A stretch of 64,000 nt of DNA from an uncultured Bryocella sp. (GTDB lineage Bacteria; Acidobacteriota; Terriglobia; Terriglobales; Acidobacteriaceae), in contig CAXSCE010000021.1 in NCBI GenBank assembly GCA_964236545.1, forward strand, positions 5,121 through 69,120, read 5' to 3'. Positions within the stretch are counted from its first letter, which is position 1; every line of letters starts with the position of its first letter. The notes beneath the pieces were generated by a model. The model saw nothing but the letters and a program-made list of their open reading frames with translations, had not been told where the DNA came from and made no database searches. The translations under genes were made by a program, and so were the position numbers. Shown here piece after piece: positions 5,494 to 64,000 of this stretch.

Positions 5494-6774
5494 TTAGTCA
5501 TTCACCACCTCCTCTGGCAGGGAGGCGTTCGCTGGCGAAGGGAGGTGATGCGCTGCGGCCTCTTCGAGAAGCTCGTCCATGGCGCTGATGGCACGGTCGA
5601 CGTGCTCGGTGATGATGAGGTAGGGCGGCAGGAGGCGAAGTACGTTTTCGTGGGTGCGGTTGAGGAGGATATGACGGTCCATCATGCCGGAGAGCAGGGA
5701 TTTCGCGATTTCAGGATCGGCGATTTCAACGCCGATCATGAGGCCCAGACCGCGCACATCCGTGATGAGTCCGGGATATTTCGATTGCAATGTGCGAAGT
5801 TGGCTGCGGAAGTAGCTACCCACTTGAGCGACGTGCGCCAGGAGGTGTTCGTTGCGCAGGGCGTCAATGACGGCGACCGCGACGGCGCAGGCGAGCGGAT
5901 TGCCGCCGAAGGTGGTGCCGTGCATGCCGGGGGTGATAGCGCGGGCGGCAGCTTCGGTGCAGAGCATGGCCCCGATCGGAATGCCGTTGGCTAGGGGTTT
6001 GGCCAGGGTCGTGACGTCGGGCTGGATGCCGAAATGCTGGTACGCCATCCAGTTCCCGGTGCGACCCACCCCGGATTGGATTTCATCGAGGATGAGCAGG
6101 GCGCCAGTGCGGTCGCACAGGGCTCTTGCTTGCGCGAGGAACTCAGCGCTGATCAGGTTGATGCCGCCTTCGCCCTGGAGGCACTCGAAGGCGATTGCGC
6201 AAAAGCCTTGCGGGTCGTTCTCGATGACAGTGCGCAGGGCTTCGGTGTCGTTGAAGGGGATAAATTCCACGTCGCCGATGAGGGGGGCGAAGGGCTGGCG
6301 GTAGGCGAGCTTGTGGGTGGTGGCGACCGAGCCCATGGTGCGGCCATGGAAACTGTGTTCCAGGCAAAGGATCTTGGTGCCGAGAGGCTTGCTTTCGGAA
6401 CGGAGCAGGCCGGCGTGGGCGCGGGCGAGCTTGAGCGCGGCCTCCCAGGCTTCGGTACCGGAGTTACAGAAGAAGGCGCGATCGAGACCGGTAATCTCGG
6501 TGAGGCGGAGGGCGAGCTCGGCGGTGTGTTGGTGATAGAAGAGATTGCTGGTGTGCAGCAGAGCCGGGGCCTGGGCCGTAATGGCCGCGGTGACGGCGGG
6601 GTGATTGTAGCCAAGTGCGCAGACGCCGATGCCGGAGAGCAGATCGAGGTAGGGTGTGTCGTTTTCGTCGAAGAGCTCGACGCCTTCGCCGCGGGTGAAG
6701 AGGATGGGGTTGCGGGCGTAGGTGTTGAGCAGGAGCTTGGCTTCGGCGGCCTGGAGCTGCGGGAGGTTAGGCAT
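5494..6774 (-). CDS. argD: Acetylornithine aminotransferase (class III PLP)
   Basis: FFCNSGTEAWEAALK, SFHGRT, LILDEIQSGVGRTG, TLAKPLANG, HGTTFGGNPLA. Confidence 0.95.
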   Translation of the reverse strand: MPNLPQLQAAEAKLLLNTYARNPILFTRGEGVELFDENDTPYLDLLSGIGVCALGYNHPAVTAAITAQAPALLHTSNLFYHQHTAELALRLTEITGLDRAFFCNSGTEAWEAALKLARAHAGLLRSESKPLGTKILCLEHSFHGRTMGSVATTHKLAYRQPFAPLIGDVEFIPFNDTEALRTVIENDPQGFCAIAFECLQGEGGINLISAEFLAQARALCDRTGALLILDEIQSGVGRTGNWMAYQHFGIQPDVTTLAKPLANGIPIGAMLCTEAAARAITPGMHGTTFGGNPLACAVAVAVIDALRNEHLLAHVAQVGSYFRSQLRTLQSKYPGLITDVRGLGLMIGVEIADPEIAKSLLSGMMDRHILLNRTHENVLRLLPPYLIITEHVDRAISAMDELLEEAAAHHLPSPANASLPEEVVND

Positions 6775-6845
6775 GGGCGGTCTCCTTGGGGGTCTTTGGC
6801 GGCGTATCCGGGAAGTTCGTGGCGCTCGCGACGGAAGGCAGGGGG

Positions 6846-6885
6846 CTCTCCGCTCTGCGGCTTCGCCGCTCCGGTCGAGAGGACA
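6846..6885 (-). repeat. REP copy (GTCATCTCGACCG family)
   Basis: CTCTCCGCTCTGCGGCTTCGCCGCTCCGGTCGAGAGGACA in the argB-argD gap. Confidence 0.8.
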
Positions 6886-6903
6886 GGGTTTGGGAGAGGC
6901 TTG

Positions 6904-7686
6904 TCATGCGACCATGACCTCCGTGCCGTCGTTGACGCGAGAGCTTAGGAGGTCGGGCAGGAGCTCGGCGGAGGTGGCGGGGAGGATGCGAACGCGTTTG
7001 ACGCCGCCCTGCAGAGCCTCGCGGCAGGCGTTGAGTTTGGGGAGCATGCCCCCGGAGACGACGGCCTGCCGTTCGAGGGCGGGAATCTCGGGGAGTTTGA
7101 GCCAGCGCATAATGGCGCCGTCGGCGCCTTTAACGCCGGGAACGTCGGTGAGGAAGACGAGGGCGTCGGCGTGGGTGGCTATGGCGCAGGCGGAGGCCAT
7201 CTCGTCGGCGTTGATGTTGTAGTACTCGCCGTCGAAGCCGAGCGCGATGCTGGAGATGACGGGGACGGCGCCCATGGTCCAGATGGCGTCGAGCCATTTG
7301 GGGTCGGTGGCGGCGATTTCGCCGACGAAGCCGAGATCGTGCTCGGTGATCTTTTTGCGGGCGCGGAAGACGTGGCCGTCACCGCCGGTGAGGCCCATCG
7401 CGGACTGGCCGCAACCATCGAGCGCGGCGACGAGCGCTTTGTTGACGCGACCGCCGAGAACCATGAGGGCGGCGTCACGGGTTTCGGCGTCAGTGATGCG
7501 GAGGCCGGCGATGAATTCCGACTGCTTGCCCATCTGCTTGAGCAGGCGGGTCAACTGCACGCCGCCGCCGTGGACCAAGGCGACGCGGTGGCCGTCTCGG
7601 GCGAGGTCGGCGATCGCGCGGGCGCAGCGGGTGAGCAGGGCGGGGTCTTCAAGGGCGGCTCCGCCAAGTTTTACGACGAACTTCAT
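6904..7686 (-). CDS. argB: Acetylglutamate kinase
   Basis: VVKLGG, VHGGGVQ, GLRITD, YNINAD, SGGMLPKL. Confidence 0.96.
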   Translation of the reverse strand: MKFVVKLGGAALEDPALLTRCARAIADLARDGHRVALVHGGGVQLTRLLKQMGKQSEFIAGLRITDAETRDAALMVLGGRVNKALVAALDGCGQSAMGLTGGDGHVFRARKKITEHDLGFVGEIAATDPKWLDAIWTMGAVPVISSIALGFDGEYYNINADEMASACAIATHADALVFLTDVPGVKGADGAIMRWLKLPEIPALERQAVVSGGMLPKLNACREALQGGVKRVRILPATSAELLPDLLSSRVNDGTEVMVA

Positions 7687-56663: not shown

Positions 56664-57965
56664 ATGGAGTATTACTGTAGCGCCTACGAGCTACGCTGTA
56701 ATGAGTGTGGCAAAAGTTTTGGCAATCGCCCTCAGTCTGCCTGCGACGAATGCCTGGCACCCCTTGAGGTGCAGTACGATCTGAACCGGATGCGAGAGCG
56801 CGTTTCCCGGCAGAGCATAGCAGCCGGCCCAGCCAACATCTGGCGTTACAGCGAAATGCTTCCCATACCGAACGGCTTTGAGCCCGATTTGCCGGTTGGC
56901 TTTACACCTCTGGTGCGCGCGAAATCTCTGGGCAAGCGTCTTGGTGCCAGCCAACTTTACGTCAAAAATGATGCGGTTTGCTTTCCCACGCTGAGCTTCA
57001 AGGACCGGGTCGTCTCCGTGGCGCTCGCCAATGCGCAGGCCTTTGGCTTCGACGTCGTCGGTTGCTCCTCGACTGGCAATCTTGCAAACTCCGTGGCGGC
57101 GCAGGCTGCCCGCCTCGGTATGAAAGCTTGCATTCTGATCCCTGCTGATCTCGAACAGGCCAAAATTCTCAATACCCAGGTCTATGGCGCGCGCCTCGTT
57201 CGTATCGAAGGCAACTACGATCACGTCAACCGACTCTGCACTCTTATCGCTGACGAGTACAACTGGGGCTTCGTCAATGTGAACCTGCGGCCCTACTATG
57301 CGGAGGGGTCAAAGACCGTAGGTTATGAAATTGCCGAGCAACTCGGTTGGCGTCTGCCCGATAACGTCGTTGTGCCCATGGCCGGCGGCTCGCTCATCCG
57401 TAAAATTCGCAAGGCCTTCAAGGAGCTCGTACAGCTTGGCCTGGTCGATGACAAGCCCGTGCGCTTCTTCGGCGCGCAGGCCACAGGCTGCTCGCCCATC
57501 GCGCATGCGGTCAAGCAGGGCTGGGACTACATTGAGCCGCAGCGGCCCCACACCATCGCCCGTTCGCTTGCTATCGGCAACCCCGCCGACGGTCCGGCGG
57601 CTGCCAAGATGATCGCGGAATGCAATGGATATGCCGAAGATGTTTCCGATGTCGAAGTCGTCTCCGGCATTCTGGAGCTGGCGGAAACGGAAGGAATCTT
57701 CACCGAAACCGCCGGCGGCGTTACCACTGCGGTGACCGCGCGGCTCTACGCCGATGGCCGCATCGGCCCGAATGAACTTACCGTCGCCTGCATCACCGGC
57801 AACGGCCTGAAAACCCTGGATGTGCTGCAGGGCCGCTTCGACACTGCACAGCCTGTTAAGCCCAAGCTTGCCGCTTTCGACGAGTACATTCGCGCCGTCG
57901 ATGGCTCGCTCGTCGGACAACCGGTGGACACCGAAGAACTCGTGCTAGCAGGAGGTGGGCGGTGA
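56664..57965 (+). CDS. Threonine-synthase-like PLP enzyme (fold type II) with an N-terminal zinc ribbon; probably a sulfur-amino-acid synthase
   Basis: CNECG...CDEC zinc ribbon, FPTLSFKDR (PLP lysine), SSTGNLA, YYAEGSKT, VPMAGGSL, ITGNGLK. Confidence 0.85.
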   Translation: MEYYCSAYELRCNECGKSFGNRPQSACDECLAPLEVQYDLNRMRERVSRQSIAAGPANIWRYSEMLPIPNGFEPDLPVGFTPLVRAKSLGKRLGASQLYVKNDAVCFPTLSFKDRVVSVALANAQAFGFDVVGCSSTGNLANSVAAQAARLGMKACILIPADLEQAKILNTQVYGARLVRIEGNYDHVNRLCTLIADEYNWGFVNVNLRPYYAEGSKTVGYEIAEQLGWRLPDNVVVPMAGGSLIRKIRKAFKELVQLGLVDDKPVRFFGAQATGCSPIAHAVKQGWDYIEPQRPHTIARSLAIGNPADGPAAAKMIAECNGYAEDVSDVEVVSGILELAETEGIFTETAGGVTTAVTARLYADGRIGPNELTVACITGNGLKTLDVLQGRFDTAQPVKPKLAAFDEYIRAVDGSLVGQPVDTEELVLAGGGR

Positions 57966-58249
57966 GTGTAAAGGTAGTTTTGCCGACAGCCTTGGCGCGG
58001 CACACGGAAGGGCAAAAAAGCTTCGCGTCCGAAGCGAAAGATCTATCTGCACTGCTTTCGGAGATCGATGCCAGGTATCCAGCCCTGGCGCAGAATGTAA
58101 AAGATGACAAAGGCAAGCTGCGCCGCTTCATCAATGTCTACATCAACGATGAAGATATTCGCTTTCTTGGCGGCGAAACGCACCTCTTTGCCGATGGCGA
58201 TGAAGTAATGCTCATTCCTTCTATTGCCGGCGGATCTTTAAATCTGTAG
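57962..58249 (+). CDS. MoaD/ThiS/CysO-type ubiquitin-like sulfur carrier with a 4-residue extension after GG
   Basis: LPTAL...RRFINVYINDEDIRF...DGDEVMLIPSIAGG-SLNL; GTGA overlap with the upstream gene. Confidence 0.9.
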   Translation: MSVKVVLPTALARHTEGQKSFASEAKDLSALLSEIDARYPALAQNVKDDKGKLRRFINVYINDEDIRFLGGETHLFADGDEVMLIPSIAGGSLNL

Positions 58250-59889: not shown

Positions 59890-60276
59890 GCACGAAGGGT
59901 TGTGCATCACGGGGCAGCCGTGAAGGTCGTGACCGACCCCCATACTTCTTGAATTAAAGTATTAATTCTGGGCAGTTTAGTGGTGGACTTTGGTGCGAGT
60001 ACCCCCGACTGCTGATGTTTTGCTCTCCGAAGTGGCAAGTCTCTGGTGTTTACTGCCTGTAGTGTAGCCAGCGTGGCGAAATGTTGTGCAAGCCGTCAGT
60101 CTCTGCCTAGGTTGGCATTCATCAGGTCGTGTTGATTTATAGAGCGATTTGTACTCTTCTTTGTTCCCGGTGGATGTAGGCGTCGAGGCCCATGGGTTCA
60201 GGGTAGCGTGTCGGCTGATCCGACCCATGCGCGATGAGGTGTTCCCCAAAGGGAGCACCTGGCTTCCCCTGAAGTT

Positions 60277-60308
60277 GGGTGCCCCACGTCTCGCTTCTGA
60301 GACGTGGG
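60277..60308 (+). repeat. Left REP of the RAYT locus
   Basis: GGGTGC-CCCACGTCTC-GCTTCT-GAGACGTGGG: a perfect 10-bp hairpin 17 nt upstream of the RAYT start. Confidence 0.85.
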
Positions 60309-60324
60309 TTTATAGGATGTCTGC

Positions 60325-60884
60325 ATGACGCAGGGATTGGTGCGGTATCAGCAGACGGGCGACCTGCACTTCGTTACCTTCAGCTGTTTTCATAGACGCC
60401 CGTACCTCGAGATGGCGGAGGCTCGTGATGCCTTTAACGTGCGTTGGAGACGATGCGGGTGCGGTACGACTTCTTTGCCATTGGGTATGTGGTCATGCCG
60501 GAGCATGTGCATTTGTTGGTGAGTGAACCTCGGGAGGTGCTTTTAGCCAAGGCGCTGCAGGCGCTGAAGCTATCCGTGGCGGTAAAGCAGGAGAAGCGGC
60601 CGTTTTGGCAGGCCCGGTACTACGACTTCAATGTGTTCACAGCGGCGAAGCGGGTGGAGAAGCTGAACTACCTGCACGAGAACCCGGTGACTCGTGGGTT
60701 GGTTGGCTTTGCGGAGAACTGGGCGTGGTCGAGTGTGCGGCACTGGTTAACGGGTGCGCCGGGGGTGGTGGAGGTGGAGTCGAACTGGACGGCTTCGCGG
60801 AGGGATTGTGCCGCGGCGGAGGCCCAGGTCTTAGAAACGAGACCTGGGGCACCCACGTTGCCGCGGCGGAGGCCCAGGTCTTAG
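60325..60884 (+). pseudogene. REP-associated tyrosine transposase (RAYT/TnpA-REP, HUH Y1) with a 1-nt deletion near 60435
   Basis: MTQGLVRYQQTGDLHFVTFSCFHRRP in one frame; YVVMPEHVHLL (HUH), FWQARYYDFN, YLHENPV and WAWSS in the next. TTT-AA-CGT would be TTT-GAA-CGT (FER) in frame. Confidence 0.9.
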
Positions 60885-60907
60885 AAACGAGACCTGGGGC
60901 ACCCACG
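60809..60907 (-). repeat. Tandem duplication (period 50 bp) carrying two right-hand REPs
   Basis: TGCCGCGGCGGAGGCCCAGGTCTTAGAAACGAGACCTGGGGCACCCACG twice; inverted relative to the left REP. Confidence 0.92.
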
Positions 60908-60976: not shown

Positions 60977-61081
60977 TCACCTTCTGGGGGAAGGAGGTGG
61001 TGGAGGTGGTTTCGGGGGCGGCGGTGTGGGCCGGTGCATAGGAGGCTAACCCGCGCGGGTACTCTCTCCCGGGGGCGTCAT
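60977..61081 (-). CDS. Possible Pro-rich micro-ORF coupled to the 2TM gene; contains an internal TAG
   Basis: ATGA overlap with the upstream stop: MTPPGESTRAG*PPMHRPTPPPPKPPPPPPSPRR*; alternative ATG at 61039 gives a 20-aa peptide. Confidence 0.3.
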
Positions 61082-61557
61082 GCTGGGATCAGATGATGTT
61101 GCCGGAAGACCTGCTCCTGCCAGTAGTAGATCCGTTTTGGATCATTGGGCGCTTCTATTGACGCCTGACTGGACAGTTCGTTCTCTTTTGCGATCAGTGC
61201 GGCGTAGCGGGACGCGGCGTCTTCTGCGTAGGTGGTGTTCCAGAGCGCCTCATAGGCCGTCGCCAGTTCACTCCAGCCGAACTGGAGTTTGAACATGGTC
61301 CGGGTGGCACCGTCAAGGCCGCGAGCAATGGAATAAGCACTGAGCATCGCCGTGAAACAGGCCAGAACAATGGCCACCCACGTGGGGGCTTTGGCTATCA
61401 GCGTGGCGGCAGCGCCGCTGGCGAGGAAGAACGAGGCTCCGCTGATCCATTGCTTCTGGCGAGTGTACAGACTGGCGAACTCGGCAAAGTAGAGCGCGCG
61501 CACTTGCGCGGCGAGTTGCCGTTCCCACAGGCTCGTGATTTGCTCTTCTGTGAGCAT
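61078..61557 (-). CDS. Two-TM membrane protein, SLATT-like effector architecture
   Basis: N-terminal helix (LYFAEFASLYTRQKQW), two closely spaced hydrophobic segments, then a helical tail (KLQFGWSELATAYEALW); family call from architecture only. Confidence 0.55.
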   Translation of the reverse strand: MLTEEQITSLWERQLAAQVRALYFAEFASLYTRQKQWISGASFFLASGAAATLIAKAPTWVAIVLACFTAMLSAYSIARGLDGATRTMFKLQFGWSELATAYEALWNTTYAEDAASRYAALIAKENELSSQASIEAPNDPKRIYYWQEQVFRQHHLIPA

Positions 61558-61629
61558 GGCGTCTGTGGCGAGTATACGAGGATATGGGAAGGTAACTCAA
61601 CCTACAGGTGGGGCGGTCGACGTGCCGGG

Positions 61630-61959
61630 TCAGTCGATGCCGAGGTCTTCGCTGAGGCGGGCGGGGTAGCGAATGCGCTCGAGTTTCAGGCCCTGTTGAT
61701 CGACGAGGAGGGCTACGAAAGTGGTCCAGACGTCTTCGCGGGTCCAGTGTTTGGGGCCGGGCTTGATGGAAAGTCGGTCGCGCAGGTAGCTGGTGCCGGG
61801 GTGTTCGGGGGCGGCGGTGCTGTTGGGCAGGTGGAGTTTGGTGCAGAGGTGCTCGAAGAGATGGCCTACGGTGACGATCTGGCCTAAGTCCTTGTCTTCT
61901 AGACGGAGATCGAAGGTTTCTTCGCAGCGGAGGACGATGTCTACGGCGTCGATACCCAT
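61630..61959 (-). CDS. Circularly permuted acyl-carrier-protein-like protein lacking the phosphopantetheine serine
   Basis: Starts MGIDAVDIVLRCEETFDLRLEDKDLGQIVTVGHLFEHL (ACP helices II-IV) and ends EDVWTTFVALLVDQQGLKLERIRYPARLSEDLGID (ACP helix I plus loop). Confidence 0.7.
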   Translation of the reverse strand: MGIDAVDIVLRCEETFDLRLEDKDLGQIVTVGHLFEHLCTKLHLPNSTAAPEHPGTSYLRDRLSIKPGPKHWTREDVWTTFVALLVDQQGLKLERIRYPARLSEDLGID

Positions 61960-61980: not shown

Positions 61981-62105
61981 TACATGCATGCGAACCCGGT
62001 CAGTCGTGGGGTCGTTTGGCTTCCCGGAGACTGGGCGTGGTCGAGTGTGCGGCACCGGTCGACGGATACGCCGGGGGTTAGTCGAGTTGGACGGCTGCGC
62101 GGAGA
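61981..62105 (+). pseudogene. Second, truncated RAYT 3' fragment
   Basis: YMHANPVSRGVVWLPGDWAWSSVRHRSTDTPGV versus YLHENPVTRGLVGFAENWAWSSVRHWLTGAPGV in the upstream RAYT. Confidence 0.85.
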
Positions 62106-62124
62106 GATCGTGATATCGCGGAAG

Positions 62125-62190
62125 CCCTGGCCTCAGAAGCGAGACCTGGGGCACCCAATGTGTTAGTGAGGTGAGATGTGGCCACCCGCC
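62125..62190 (-). repeat. REP plus downstream GATGTGGCCACCCGCC half-site
   Basis: CCCTGGCCTCAGAAGCGAGACCTGGGGCACCC (62125-62156), 18 nt, then GATGTGGCCACCCGCC; same layout as 60873-60939. Confidence 0.8.
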
Positions 62191-62198
62191 CCCAATAC

Positions 62199-63791
62199 TT
62201 AAGTTCGTTCAGGCGCTCGTTCTGGCGTGACAGGGGTCTCGAGGATGTTCTGGGTAAGGATGATTCGTCTAATACTCCGCTTATCGTCGAATGGCACAAC
62301 GTACTCACTGGAATCTCCATTCGCCAAGTCGAAACCAAGATCCGGTTTTTTGCTGGTATTCATCAGATCGACGTAAGTCCCGTAATCGAGAGCATAGATG
62401 TCGTACCGCACACCTGGAGTATCTTTGTCTGCATAGCCACGAGCCACAAGATGTAGAACCCTCAAATCGAAGAGCTGCTGGATGAGGGGATTTGACCGCA
62501 GTTCACGAGGGAGCAAAAATGATCTAGCCTTCCGCGTTCCAATTACTTCGTCTGTGATTCTTCTTAGCACTGAGCGCAATTCGTCGGTCAGGTTTCTTTC
62601 CTTGTCCTGCTCGAACCATTGACGGGCCGCTTCTAACACGGCTTCACGGTCCACCTTGTCCCTGTGCTTACGTTGAGCTATAAAGTAAGCTTTGCTGAAG
62701 ATGTTGATTAGATCACGAGCAACACCCTCTGCTGCCCGTACAAGCTCTTGAAAAACTTTTCTCTCAGTAAACAGTCGACTGGCCAATCTTTTCCCGTCGC
62801 TTATGCCTAATTCGACTAAACGTTCTGCTCCGAGGTCACTGGCTAAATGACGAACGAGTATGTCCGAGAAAGCATCTGTTATTCCTTCGGGATTCCGGTC
62901 GAAAACGTAATAATCGTCGATATCCAAGCTGGCTGAGATATCCGCGCCAATTTCAAAACCGAGGCTGCCGTTTTTCGTGTTGATCCCGAAATCAGAGCGA
63001 TGCTCAAGCGCCGCAATCTTCAGAGCAACATTTGGCAATGGCACGAATGAGCGTTTTATGAATTCGGCTCAATACGGCTGAACATCCAAAGGCAAGGATG
63101 ACCACTCGTCAATCAGCAAGTACAAATTTGCTTCATAGTAGCCGAGTATCTCGCGAAGAGAACCGCTTACAAATGGAAAAATTATCTTATCCGAGTACTC
63201 GAATTTGTAGGTGCGGGCGATTTCCGCTTCTGCAATGTCTTTCGCCGAACCGCCCAACTGGAGAGATGCTGAACTCGCGATCGTTGCACCAGCATTTAGA
63301 GTAGATTCCGAGTTGGTTTTATTTCGCTCAGTAACGCTGTCAAGGCGCTTGACCTCCGCAGGTTCTGTAGCGACCTCGCCAAAATTACTGAGGGCCTCCA
63401 AGGCAGCATCAGCGAAATCACCACCCTCGTTAACTACGAATGCGAGAAGAGAGTTGTAGATCTCCATTAACAGATCACGAAATAATGCTGTACAGCGTAA
63501 GACTATCGACAGGTTAGGATCAGCGAACTGGCTAGAGCTACCGAATGTTCGTGCGTCAACGTAACATACGCAGGTTCGTTTGTTCTTGGCTAACTCAGAC
63601 TCCAAAACTCGCAAAATGTGTGTCTTGCCAGTGCCACGACGCCCAAAGATTATTTGATTGTTAGTGTTTTCAAGTTGCGGAATGATCCCTGGATCTACGA
63701 AAGCCTCTACAAGCTTCTGGGTGTCTGTTTGTTTCTCCGATCGCTGCGGAATTCTTGCTACGGCCTTAGCTAAATCTTTGTCGAGAACCAT
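62199..63791 (-). pseudogene. P-loop ATPase (ORC1/CDC6-like or STAND-related), about 530 aa, interrupted by one in-frame TGA at 63069-63071
   Basis: Walker A IFGRRGTGKT and Walker B LYLLIDEW. The two track ORFs are in the same frame: QPY*AEFIKRSFVPLPNVALKIAA. Markedly AT-richer than the core genes. Confidence 0.8.
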
Positions 63792-63800
63792 AAGCTACTC

Positions 63801-64000
63801 CTACCGTCTGAATCTTTGCATACCGCCCATTTGGCTCATGAGGCGTTGTTGCATTTTTTGCATGCCTCCGCCGGAGCCCATCATTTTCATCATTTTGCTC
63901 ATCTAGGCGTGTTGTTTTAGGAGGTTGTTTACCTCCTGGACGGTGGTGCCGGAGCCAGGTGGCTATGCGTTCGCAATTGGTGATGACCAGTGAGTTCCGG
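63801..64000 (-). pseudogene. ffh: Degenerate 3' end of the signal recognition particle protein gene
   Basis: GSGTTVQEVNNLLKQHA*MSKMMKMMGSGGGMQKMQQRLMSQMGGMQRFRR* is an Ffh M-domain tail with an internal TAG (63903-63905) and a frameshift just upstream (RIAT in another frame). Confidence 0.8.

Follow-up and report, generated by a model that had tools for sequence, protein, structure and literature searches.

The DNA analysed here, referred to as the window, is a 64-kb stretch of contig CAXSCE010000021.1 from an uncultured Bryocella sp. Near its right-hand end, the minus strand carries in succession the 3' end of ffh, an interrupted ATPase gene, a small gene whose product resembles acyl carrier protein (ACP), and a gene for a protein with two transmembrane (TM) helices, hereafter the 2TM protein. 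Pieces of a RAYT transposase gene and of repetitive extragenic palindrome (REP)-like repeats lie among them. The subject of this analysis is the ACP-like gene at 61630–61959, an open reading frame (ORF) of 109 amino acids with its ATG at 61959 and its stop codon at 61630–61632 on the minus strand. The chain order of the protein is that of a circularly permuted ACP, far beyond what chance would produce. The protein consists of MGIDAVDIVLRCEETFDLRLEDKDLGQIVTVGHLFEHLCTKL, followed by a Pro/Ala-rich linker and then TREDVWTTFVALLVDQQGLKLERIRYPARLSEDLGID, and the linker connects the former C-terminus of ACP to the former N-terminus. The gene and its parts are as follows.

61630..61959, minus strand: whole circularly permuted ACP-like gene (ORF and translation; family profile 129 bits)
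61834..61959, minus strand: N-segment, residues 1–42, with Gly2 in the Ser column and then helices II, III and IV (residues 3–42 correspond to ACP 38–77; AlphaFold; Foldseek)
61744..61833, minus strand: linker, residues 43–72, Pro/Ala-rich (variable in length and sequence in the family alignment)
61633..61743, minus strand: C-segment, residues 73–109, helix I and the long loop, with the end DLGID corresponding to DLGAD of ACP (alignments; AlphaFold helix)

The gene is the only match to the family profile in the window. The database gene call starts 10 codons further upstream than 61959. The upstream ATG of that call was rejected in favour of the one at 61959, since MGLD opens 187 of 235 related proteins and the upstream ATG falls within a repeated RAYT/REP fragment.

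When the native protein is searched against all PDB sequences, ACPs are matched at E = 1e-4, and the match to the ACP 7e42_A comes in two swapped stretches. Residues 84–109 of the query align with ACP residues 11–36, which end in DLGAD, and residues 3–42 align with ACP residues 38–77, which start with LD. Residue 37 of 7e42_A, the Ser that bears phosphopantetheine, is the sole residue skipped between the two aligned blocks. A re-joined construct, in which the C-segment is placed in front of the N-segment, matches full-length ACPs from end to end at E = 3e-8. An artificial tandem copy of the protein scores 22.0 bits across its junction, above the Pfam PP-binding cut-off of 20.8. The native protein gives only a half-match to PF00550 (residues 3–38 on profile positions 32–67), and its 13.0 bits fall below the same gathering score; some relatives, such as P0029 with 32.3 bits (P-numbers denote relatives), exceed the cut-off on the half-match alone. 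The NCBIfam ACP models show the same swapped pattern for the window protein and for its relatives, and P0015 matches NF002148 at E = 1.4e-15. Alignments of the C-segment place residues 73–109 on ACP 3–39, residues 84–109 on ACP 11–36, and the segment on positions 3–39 of NF003757. Consistently, the family profile retrieves ACPs from the PDB at E = 1e-19, with two swapped stretches for most of the top matches. All four helices and the loop of the PF00550 ACPs are thus covered with their halves swapped, and the collinear order of helix I, loop, Ser and helices II–IV is not found in the window protein. The swapped PDB matches, the re-joined construct and the family profile confirm an earlier note, made from the sequence alone, which had proposed a circular permutation in the order of helices II–IV, linker and helix I with the end DLGID. 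The structural identity of the protein as a permuted ACP is very probable.

Compared with AcpP (PF00550, TIGR00517), the window protein belongs to the same sequence family: each segment is about 30–40% identical, all helices and the long loop align, and the acidic helix II, the DLG motif, F50, the TVG motif and an acidic net charge are shared. It differs from AcpP in its permuted order (helices II, III and IV, linker, helix I and loop), in the cut between Asp35 and Ser36 and in the replacement of the Ser by Gly. Furthermore, the linker is variable and may hold a two-TM insert, and the gene lies outside fab or pls clusters.

The position of the chain break was located with a canonical-ACP hidden Markov model built from nine ACPs and run on 235 family members, of which a Met-less re-joined set comprised 232. 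The break falls exactly at the Ser column in 158 of the 235 relatives, residue 3 being aligned immediately after that column and the end of the C-segment immediately before it. Consistently, 230 of the 232 Met-less re-joined relatives have no insertion at the Ser column. This column is occupied by Gly in 97%, Ser in 2% and Ala in 1% of the 232 relatives, and by Gly2 in the window protein. The supported register sets the C-terminal DLGID on DLGAD of ACP and the N-terminal (M)G-IDAVD on (S)-LDTVE, so that the last residue of the chain is the Asp corresponding to the Asp before the Ser in ordinary ACP. Another register, which equates G2-I3-D4-A5 with G-A-D-S, was rejected because it opens a 3-residue gap in helix II, scores 34.3 against 36.9 bits, and relies on residue 5, which varies among T, A, V, I, S and G in the 235 relatives. 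The earlier note had taken A5 for the replacement of the phosphopantetheine Ser; it was off by three residues, the Ser column being at the chain break and Gly2. Its statement that the protein cannot be phosphopantetheinylated at the canonical site holds, because the Ser column contains no Ser and attachment of the cofactor there is impossible. On these alignments, the Met-less protein is best described as an ACP permutant without gaps, whose chain is cut between Asp35 and Ser36 and in which Gly takes the place of Ser36.

Residue 2 is Gly, Ser or Ala in 232 of 235 relatives, and these residues are compatible with removal of the initiator Met. Because residue 2 is nearly always one of the three, the Met is presumably removed. 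The chain ends in Asp in 168 of 235 relatives and in Gly, Glu, Ser or Asn in about 30% of family members. Neither terminus is extended in any of the phyla covered.

The AlphaFold prediction depended on the depth of the alignment. A run with 3 sequences was unusable, with a predicted local distance difference test score (pLDDT) of 51, and a re-run with a 34-sequence alignment reached a pLDDT of 81.9 and a predicted TM-score (pTM) of 0.74. The model has helices at residues 3–16, 22–25, 31–41 and 74–89, whose lengths and spacing are those of ACP helices II, III, IV and I, and the last of them has a local pLDDT of about 88. A Foldseek search of the PDB gives low root-mean-square deviation (rmsd) matches to nearly nothing but ACPs, with about 40 residues of the N-terminal half superposed at 0.8–1.6 Å. 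Because the aligner depends on residue order, the superposition covers the N-terminal half alone. The structure-prediction check proposed in the earlier note therefore came out in part: the four expected helices are predicted and helices II–IV superpose on ACPs, and the permuted superposition stops at the N-terminal half. In such a fold, the two chain termini would pack together at the head of helix II. A PDB search with the family profile found no structure in the permuted order.

Many residues of ACP are well conserved in the family. In E. coli AcpP numbering, D38 is conserved in 97%, V40 in 94%, E41 in 97%, E47 in 100% and E48 in 81% of the relatives. Conservation is also high at F50 (99%), D56 (84%), the T-V-G motif (92–96%) and the D-L of DLG (97–98%). 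The acidic residues of helix II form the recognition surface for ACP clients. The short forms of the family have a median net charge of −11, and canonical ACPs range from −14 to −17.

The family is large. An exhaustive HMMER search at E ≤ 0.001 yielded 866 representatives clustered at 50% identity, including a few repeat-protein artefacts. In a word-indexed search, 7402 of the 8000 candidates scored reached E ≤ 1e-5, with ordinary ACPs at the weak end of these matches. Three architectures are found, all of which show the M-G-L-D start, and most members end in D-L-G-x-D. Proteins of the first are about 83–96 amino acids long with a linker of 6–8 residues; those of the second, to which the window protein belongs, are about 100–135 amino acids long; and those of the third are about 220–250 amino acids long, their linker being an insert of ~150 amino acids with a conserved Arg-rich segment and two TM helices. 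About half of the family members examined carry such a membrane hairpin in the linker. In 24 of 109 long forms, the segment after the N-segment (residues about 57–86; P0087, P0134, L063) is weakly similar to ACP helix I and the loop (E 0.015–10), and the long forms may hold a second, degenerate helix-I-like element able to compete with the terminal one.

The shortest forms have roughly the length of one ACP whose natural ends have been joined, as expected if the family arose when a tandem duplicate lost its outer halves. This is also the likely evolutionary route that connects the family with the tandem ACPs of polyunsaturated fatty acid (PUFA) and polyketide synthases, whose inter-ACP linkers the Pro/Ala-rich linker presumably resembles. 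However, those tandem ACPs are complete, collinear, Ser-bearing domains of megasynthases, and a tandem intermediate was not found for the permuted family. For protein evolution, the family offers what looks like a textbook-clean permutation by duplication, with intermediates that differ in linker length.

Genomic loci with a family member come from Acidobacteriota, which make up the majority of the best 80, and from Planctomycetota, Pseudomonadota, Verrucomicrobiota, Bacteroidota, Cyanobacteria, Armatimonadota and Nitrospinota. A search of 2.9 million viral contigs found no member of the family, and the plasmid search returned a single megaplasmid with a member. No Pfam, NCBIfam or PADLOC model describes the permuted family. 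JGI often annotates its members as 'acyl carrier protein'; the single NCBI name shown reads 'hypothetical protein'. Many members are thus named after a carrier whose cofactor they are unable to carry at the canonical site. A literature search for a natural permuted or Ser-less ACP found none. ACP is among the most studied small proteins, and a natural circular permutant of it appears not to have been described. Its existence in a whole family would surprise specialists in ACP and in protein evolution, and it corrects a widespread annotation.

Taken as a whole, these data lead us to regard the family as a large, unrecognised group of naturally circularly permuted ACPs, and the window gene as an intact member with a cargo-less docking role; we give this overall statement a probability of about 0.5. 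In the proposed mechanism, the cargo-less ACP would dock on one or more ACP-client proteins and act there as a competitor, a regulator or a scaffold. Among the roles considered, this one is the most likely because the acidic recognition helix II is almost unchanged. The mechanism itself is drawn by analogy and is tentative, with somewhat less than an even chance of being correct. In the long forms, the TM hairpin would hold the ACP-like domain at the membrane, and the cytoplasmic face is suggested because the flanks of the hairpin are Arg-rich. The functional analogue is apo-ACP, which likewise would present helix II on an ACP fold without a prosthetic group. Apo-ACP is reportedly a potent growth inhibitor in E. 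coli (Keating, Carey and Cronan 1995). However, apo-ACP is a transient precursor made holo by AcpS, whereas the permuted protein is the product of a separate, conserved gene and is permanently unmodifiable at that site. For studies of lipid metabolism, a permanently 'apo' ACP that keeps its docking helix would be a ready-made probe or regulator of ACP clients. The suggestion of an ACP mimic or decoy, made before these analyses, is reasonable as far as it rests on a permuted ACP fold with no modifiable Ser; the link to neighbouring genes that accompanied it does not hold.

Several observations weigh against the docking role or against parts of the overall statement. The net charge of the window protein is −5, less acidic than the family median. 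The C-segment probably occupies the position of helix I, a placement that comes from profile alignment and local AlphaFold confidence. In no clade does a recurrent partner gene stand next to the family gene. Decay of the family gene in some Acidobacteria, of which a remnant described below is an example, indicates that the gene is dispensable there. Public sequencing runs that contain this sequence are of DNA from a lichen metagenome only, with no RNA data among them. Finally, a plain change of Ser to Ala would be enough for a decoy, so that the strict conservation of both termini hints at something beyond docking. Because docking leaves the precise fixing of the termini unexplained, there is room for a domain swap or for a role of the terminal groups.

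In a domain-swapped oligomer, the N-segment of one chain would pair with the C-segment of another to give dimers or head-to-tail chains, and in the long forms such a swap would link membrane hairpins to each other. The flexible linker of the 105–135 amino acid forms and the ~150-amino-acid insert of the long forms are long enough to allow swapping, and the weak extra helix-I-like segment seen in 24 of the 109 long forms is a potential competitor of the terminal C-segment. However, the AlphaFold monomer closes confidently at the pTM given above, and the 6–8 residue linkers of the 83–90 amino acid forms resemble natural ACP termini joined together, as an intramolecular fold needs. A domain-swapped oligomer is unlikely, although it is more probable than the other alternatives.

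A somewhat less probable explanation is that the protein is a new kind of carrier, in which the amine of Gly2 or the carboxylate of the C-terminal Asp would replace the Ser as the point of attachment. This would be analogous to the C-terminal carriers LysW or ThiS/MoaD, built here on an ACP scaffold. Both termini are indeed fixed at the site of the prosthetic group (residue 2 in 232 of 235 and the last Asp in 168 of 235 relatives) and are free of extensions across phyla, and a mere decoy would not need such precision. In contrast, no ligase, transferase or adenylating enzyme is conserved beside the gene in any clade, the last residue differs from Asp in the roughly 30% of members noted above, and an amine at a helix N-cap near carboxylates would presumably be protonated and a poor nucleophile. 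A broader form of this idea, a new carrier or switch class in which the termini at the Ser site would be the functional group, is more doubtful still. They would either take up a covalent attachment or form a reversible 'clasp', whose opening and closing would be coupled, in the membrane forms, to the two-TM hairpin.

The next alternative involves the neighbours of the gene. The features around it are as follows.

63801..64000, minus strand: 3' end of ffh (SRP54), the anchor gene upstream of the family gene in the window's clade (translation like the ffh tail of L015)
62199..63791, minus strand: ORC-CDC6-like P-loop ATPase, interrupted (PF24389, 56 bits when read through, cut-off 27)
61981..62157, plus strand: 3' remnant of a RAYT transposase with a REP-like repeat, directly upstream of the ACP-like gene (80–81% identical direct repeat of 60669–60855)
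61078..61557, minus strand: 2TM protein, 159 amino acids, with two hydrophobic helices, conserved in Acidobacteria (no Pfam or PADLOC match; 97 relatives)
60444..60884, plus strand: RAYT (IS200-like Y1 transposase), flanked by inverted REP-like repeats (PF01797, 23.2 bits)

The neighbourhood was compared with 80 other genomic loci that carry a family member (L-numbers denote loci). The earlier note had suggested a regulatory role beside a 2TM effector, and in its full form this would make the protein the regulatory subunit or decoy of a conflict system together with the upstream ATPase and a downstream SLATT-like 2TM effector. The three genes lie on one strand, with 72 bp between the ACP-like gene and the 2TM gene, and the ATPase weakly matches defence-associated models. 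In L015, a 2TM homologue with 50% identity follows the family gene at a distance of 1.2 kb, and the decayed family remnant adjoins the 2TM gene in L099. The arrangement also resembles the SLATT systems, in that genes for a small two-helix protein and a P-loop NTPase are neighbours on one strand. However, the 2TM protein matches no SLATT model (no SLATT or other Pfam match at E ≤ 10, and no PADLOC match). No ATPase homologue was found by blastp or jackhmmer in any of the 80 other loci, and the window copy is broken by an in-frame TGA. A RAYT/REP remnant of 177 bp lies between the ATPase and the ACP-like gene. Among the 80 loci, the 2TM homologue in L015 is the only one, and there a small antitoxin-like gene (weak HicB match) stands between it and the family gene. 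The 2TM gene also occurs in other contexts with no intact family gene nearby, downstream of ffh in L099–L102 and away from ffh in L103. Its 97 relatives are mostly 157–169 amino acids long, and none has a recorded Pfam domain. The position between ffh and the family gene is empty in L095, where the family gene starts 31 bp after ffh, and is filled with unrelated inserts in the same clade. A PADLOC scan found nothing for the ACP-like protein itself, and a conflict system is further disfavoured by the absence of the family from the viral contigs. The trio of genes does not recur in the 80 loci, the ATPase being found in none and the 2TM gene in one, and across phyla the neighbours are unrelated, so that neither the co-occurrence with SLATT and ATPase genes nor the regulatory role beside the 2TM protein is borne out. 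A conflict system is thus very improbable, the defence angle fails, and the ACP-like gene is removed from the supposed defence operon. Least probable of all, with hardly any chance, is that the gene encodes an ordinary ACP, results from an error of gene calling or is what remains of a decaying tandem ACP gene: the 'acyl carrier protein' labels of JGI and a few frameshifted or truncated relatives (P0002, P0018, P0021) speak for it, but hundreds of diverged proteins in many phyla share the MGLD start and the DLGxD end, the Ser column holds Gly in 97%, and the segment order is never canonical.

The interrupted ATPase gene and the 2TM gene belong to a variable region rich in REP and RAYT sequences and are not partners of the ACP-like gene. 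The ffh gene stands upstream of the family gene in L014, L015, L021, L026, L030, L081–L084 and L095–L096. What lies between the two genes differs: a HEPN-like gene in L015, RAYT in L021, L026 and L030, GMT-wHTH, DUF5131 and ParE/Phd genes in L081, and the ATPase in the window, where it begins nine bases past the end of ffh. RAYT genes flank the family gene in L021, L026, L028, L030 and L034. In the window, direct repeats of 80–81% identity (60669–60905 and 61981–62157) stand on either side of the ACP-like and 2TM genes; they comprise the RAYT 3' end and a REP-like palindrome, and inverted repeats are found at 60275–60311, 60823–60905 and 62122–62158. Most simply, ffh and the ACP-like gene can be read as residents whose surroundings are an insertion hotspot, with the ATPase, probably now a pseudogene, as cargo.

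Outside the window's clade, the neighbours are unrelated housekeeping genes, such as ABC transporter genes, xseA, rsmE, RNase PH, aconitase, tgt, a Nudix gene and others. The close neighbours on the same strand, those of the short forms included, are likewise housekeeping genes of unrelated kinds. When the neighbour ORFs of the 80 loci were clustered all against all, no neighbour family exceeded 7 loci. The biggest cluster, which spans 11 loci, consists of the ORF antisense to the family gene, and the other clusters comprise low-complexity frames, histidine kinases, integrases or RAYT.

The decayed remnant mentioned above, EPWTTPNVWANLKVIILDQLQVPEDE, lies at about 6654–6760 of L099, just downstream of the 2TM homologue, and corresponds to the C-segment; it is also found in L100.

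The ATPase gene of the window is one frame split by the in-frame TGA at 63069–63071 (LDVQPY*AEFIKRSF) and appears as two ORFs in the ORF list. The TGA reflects either a pseudogene, a sequencing error or read-through. The ffh tail also contains an in-frame TAG, at 63903–63905 on the minus strand and about 33 codons before the usual stop, where the window reads LLKQHA*MSKMM and L015 reads LLRQYNQMSKMF; the relatives have Gln at this position. The TAG would take off the Met/Gly-rich C-terminal tail. With two nonsense codons less than 1 kb apart, assembly quality is possibly an issue.

A promoter-like site, TTGAGT-18-TATACT, is present at 61571–61600 on the minus strand, between the stop codon of the ACP-like gene and the start of the 2TM gene. 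The 2TM gene may have its own promoter on account of this site, and such sites are no commoner in the sequence than the shuffled expectation.

The insert of L015, from a Granulicella, is a gene at 6431–7492 for a 353-amino-acid protein with an R-x4-H motif (RNNLVH) and weak Csx1/HEPN matches. It fills the slot between ffh and the family gene, and it is another sign that the slot collects defence-type cargo. One or two tyrosine-recombinase (Phage_integrase) genes lie upstream of ffh in L081, L083, L095, L096, L099 and L101. Where both are visible, the recombinase pair is in tandem, and it forms a conserved synteny beside a variable region in several Acidobacteria.

Elsewhere in the window, two genes lie at 56664–58249 on the plus strand. 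The first encodes a pyridoxal phosphate (PLP)-dependent enzyme (PALP, 220 bits) that carries a Cys-rich motif at its N-terminus; the second, which overlaps the first by 4 nt, encodes a ThiS/MoaD-like protein. The latter has GG and then four residues (IAGGSLNL), and the two look like a sulfur-carrier pair.
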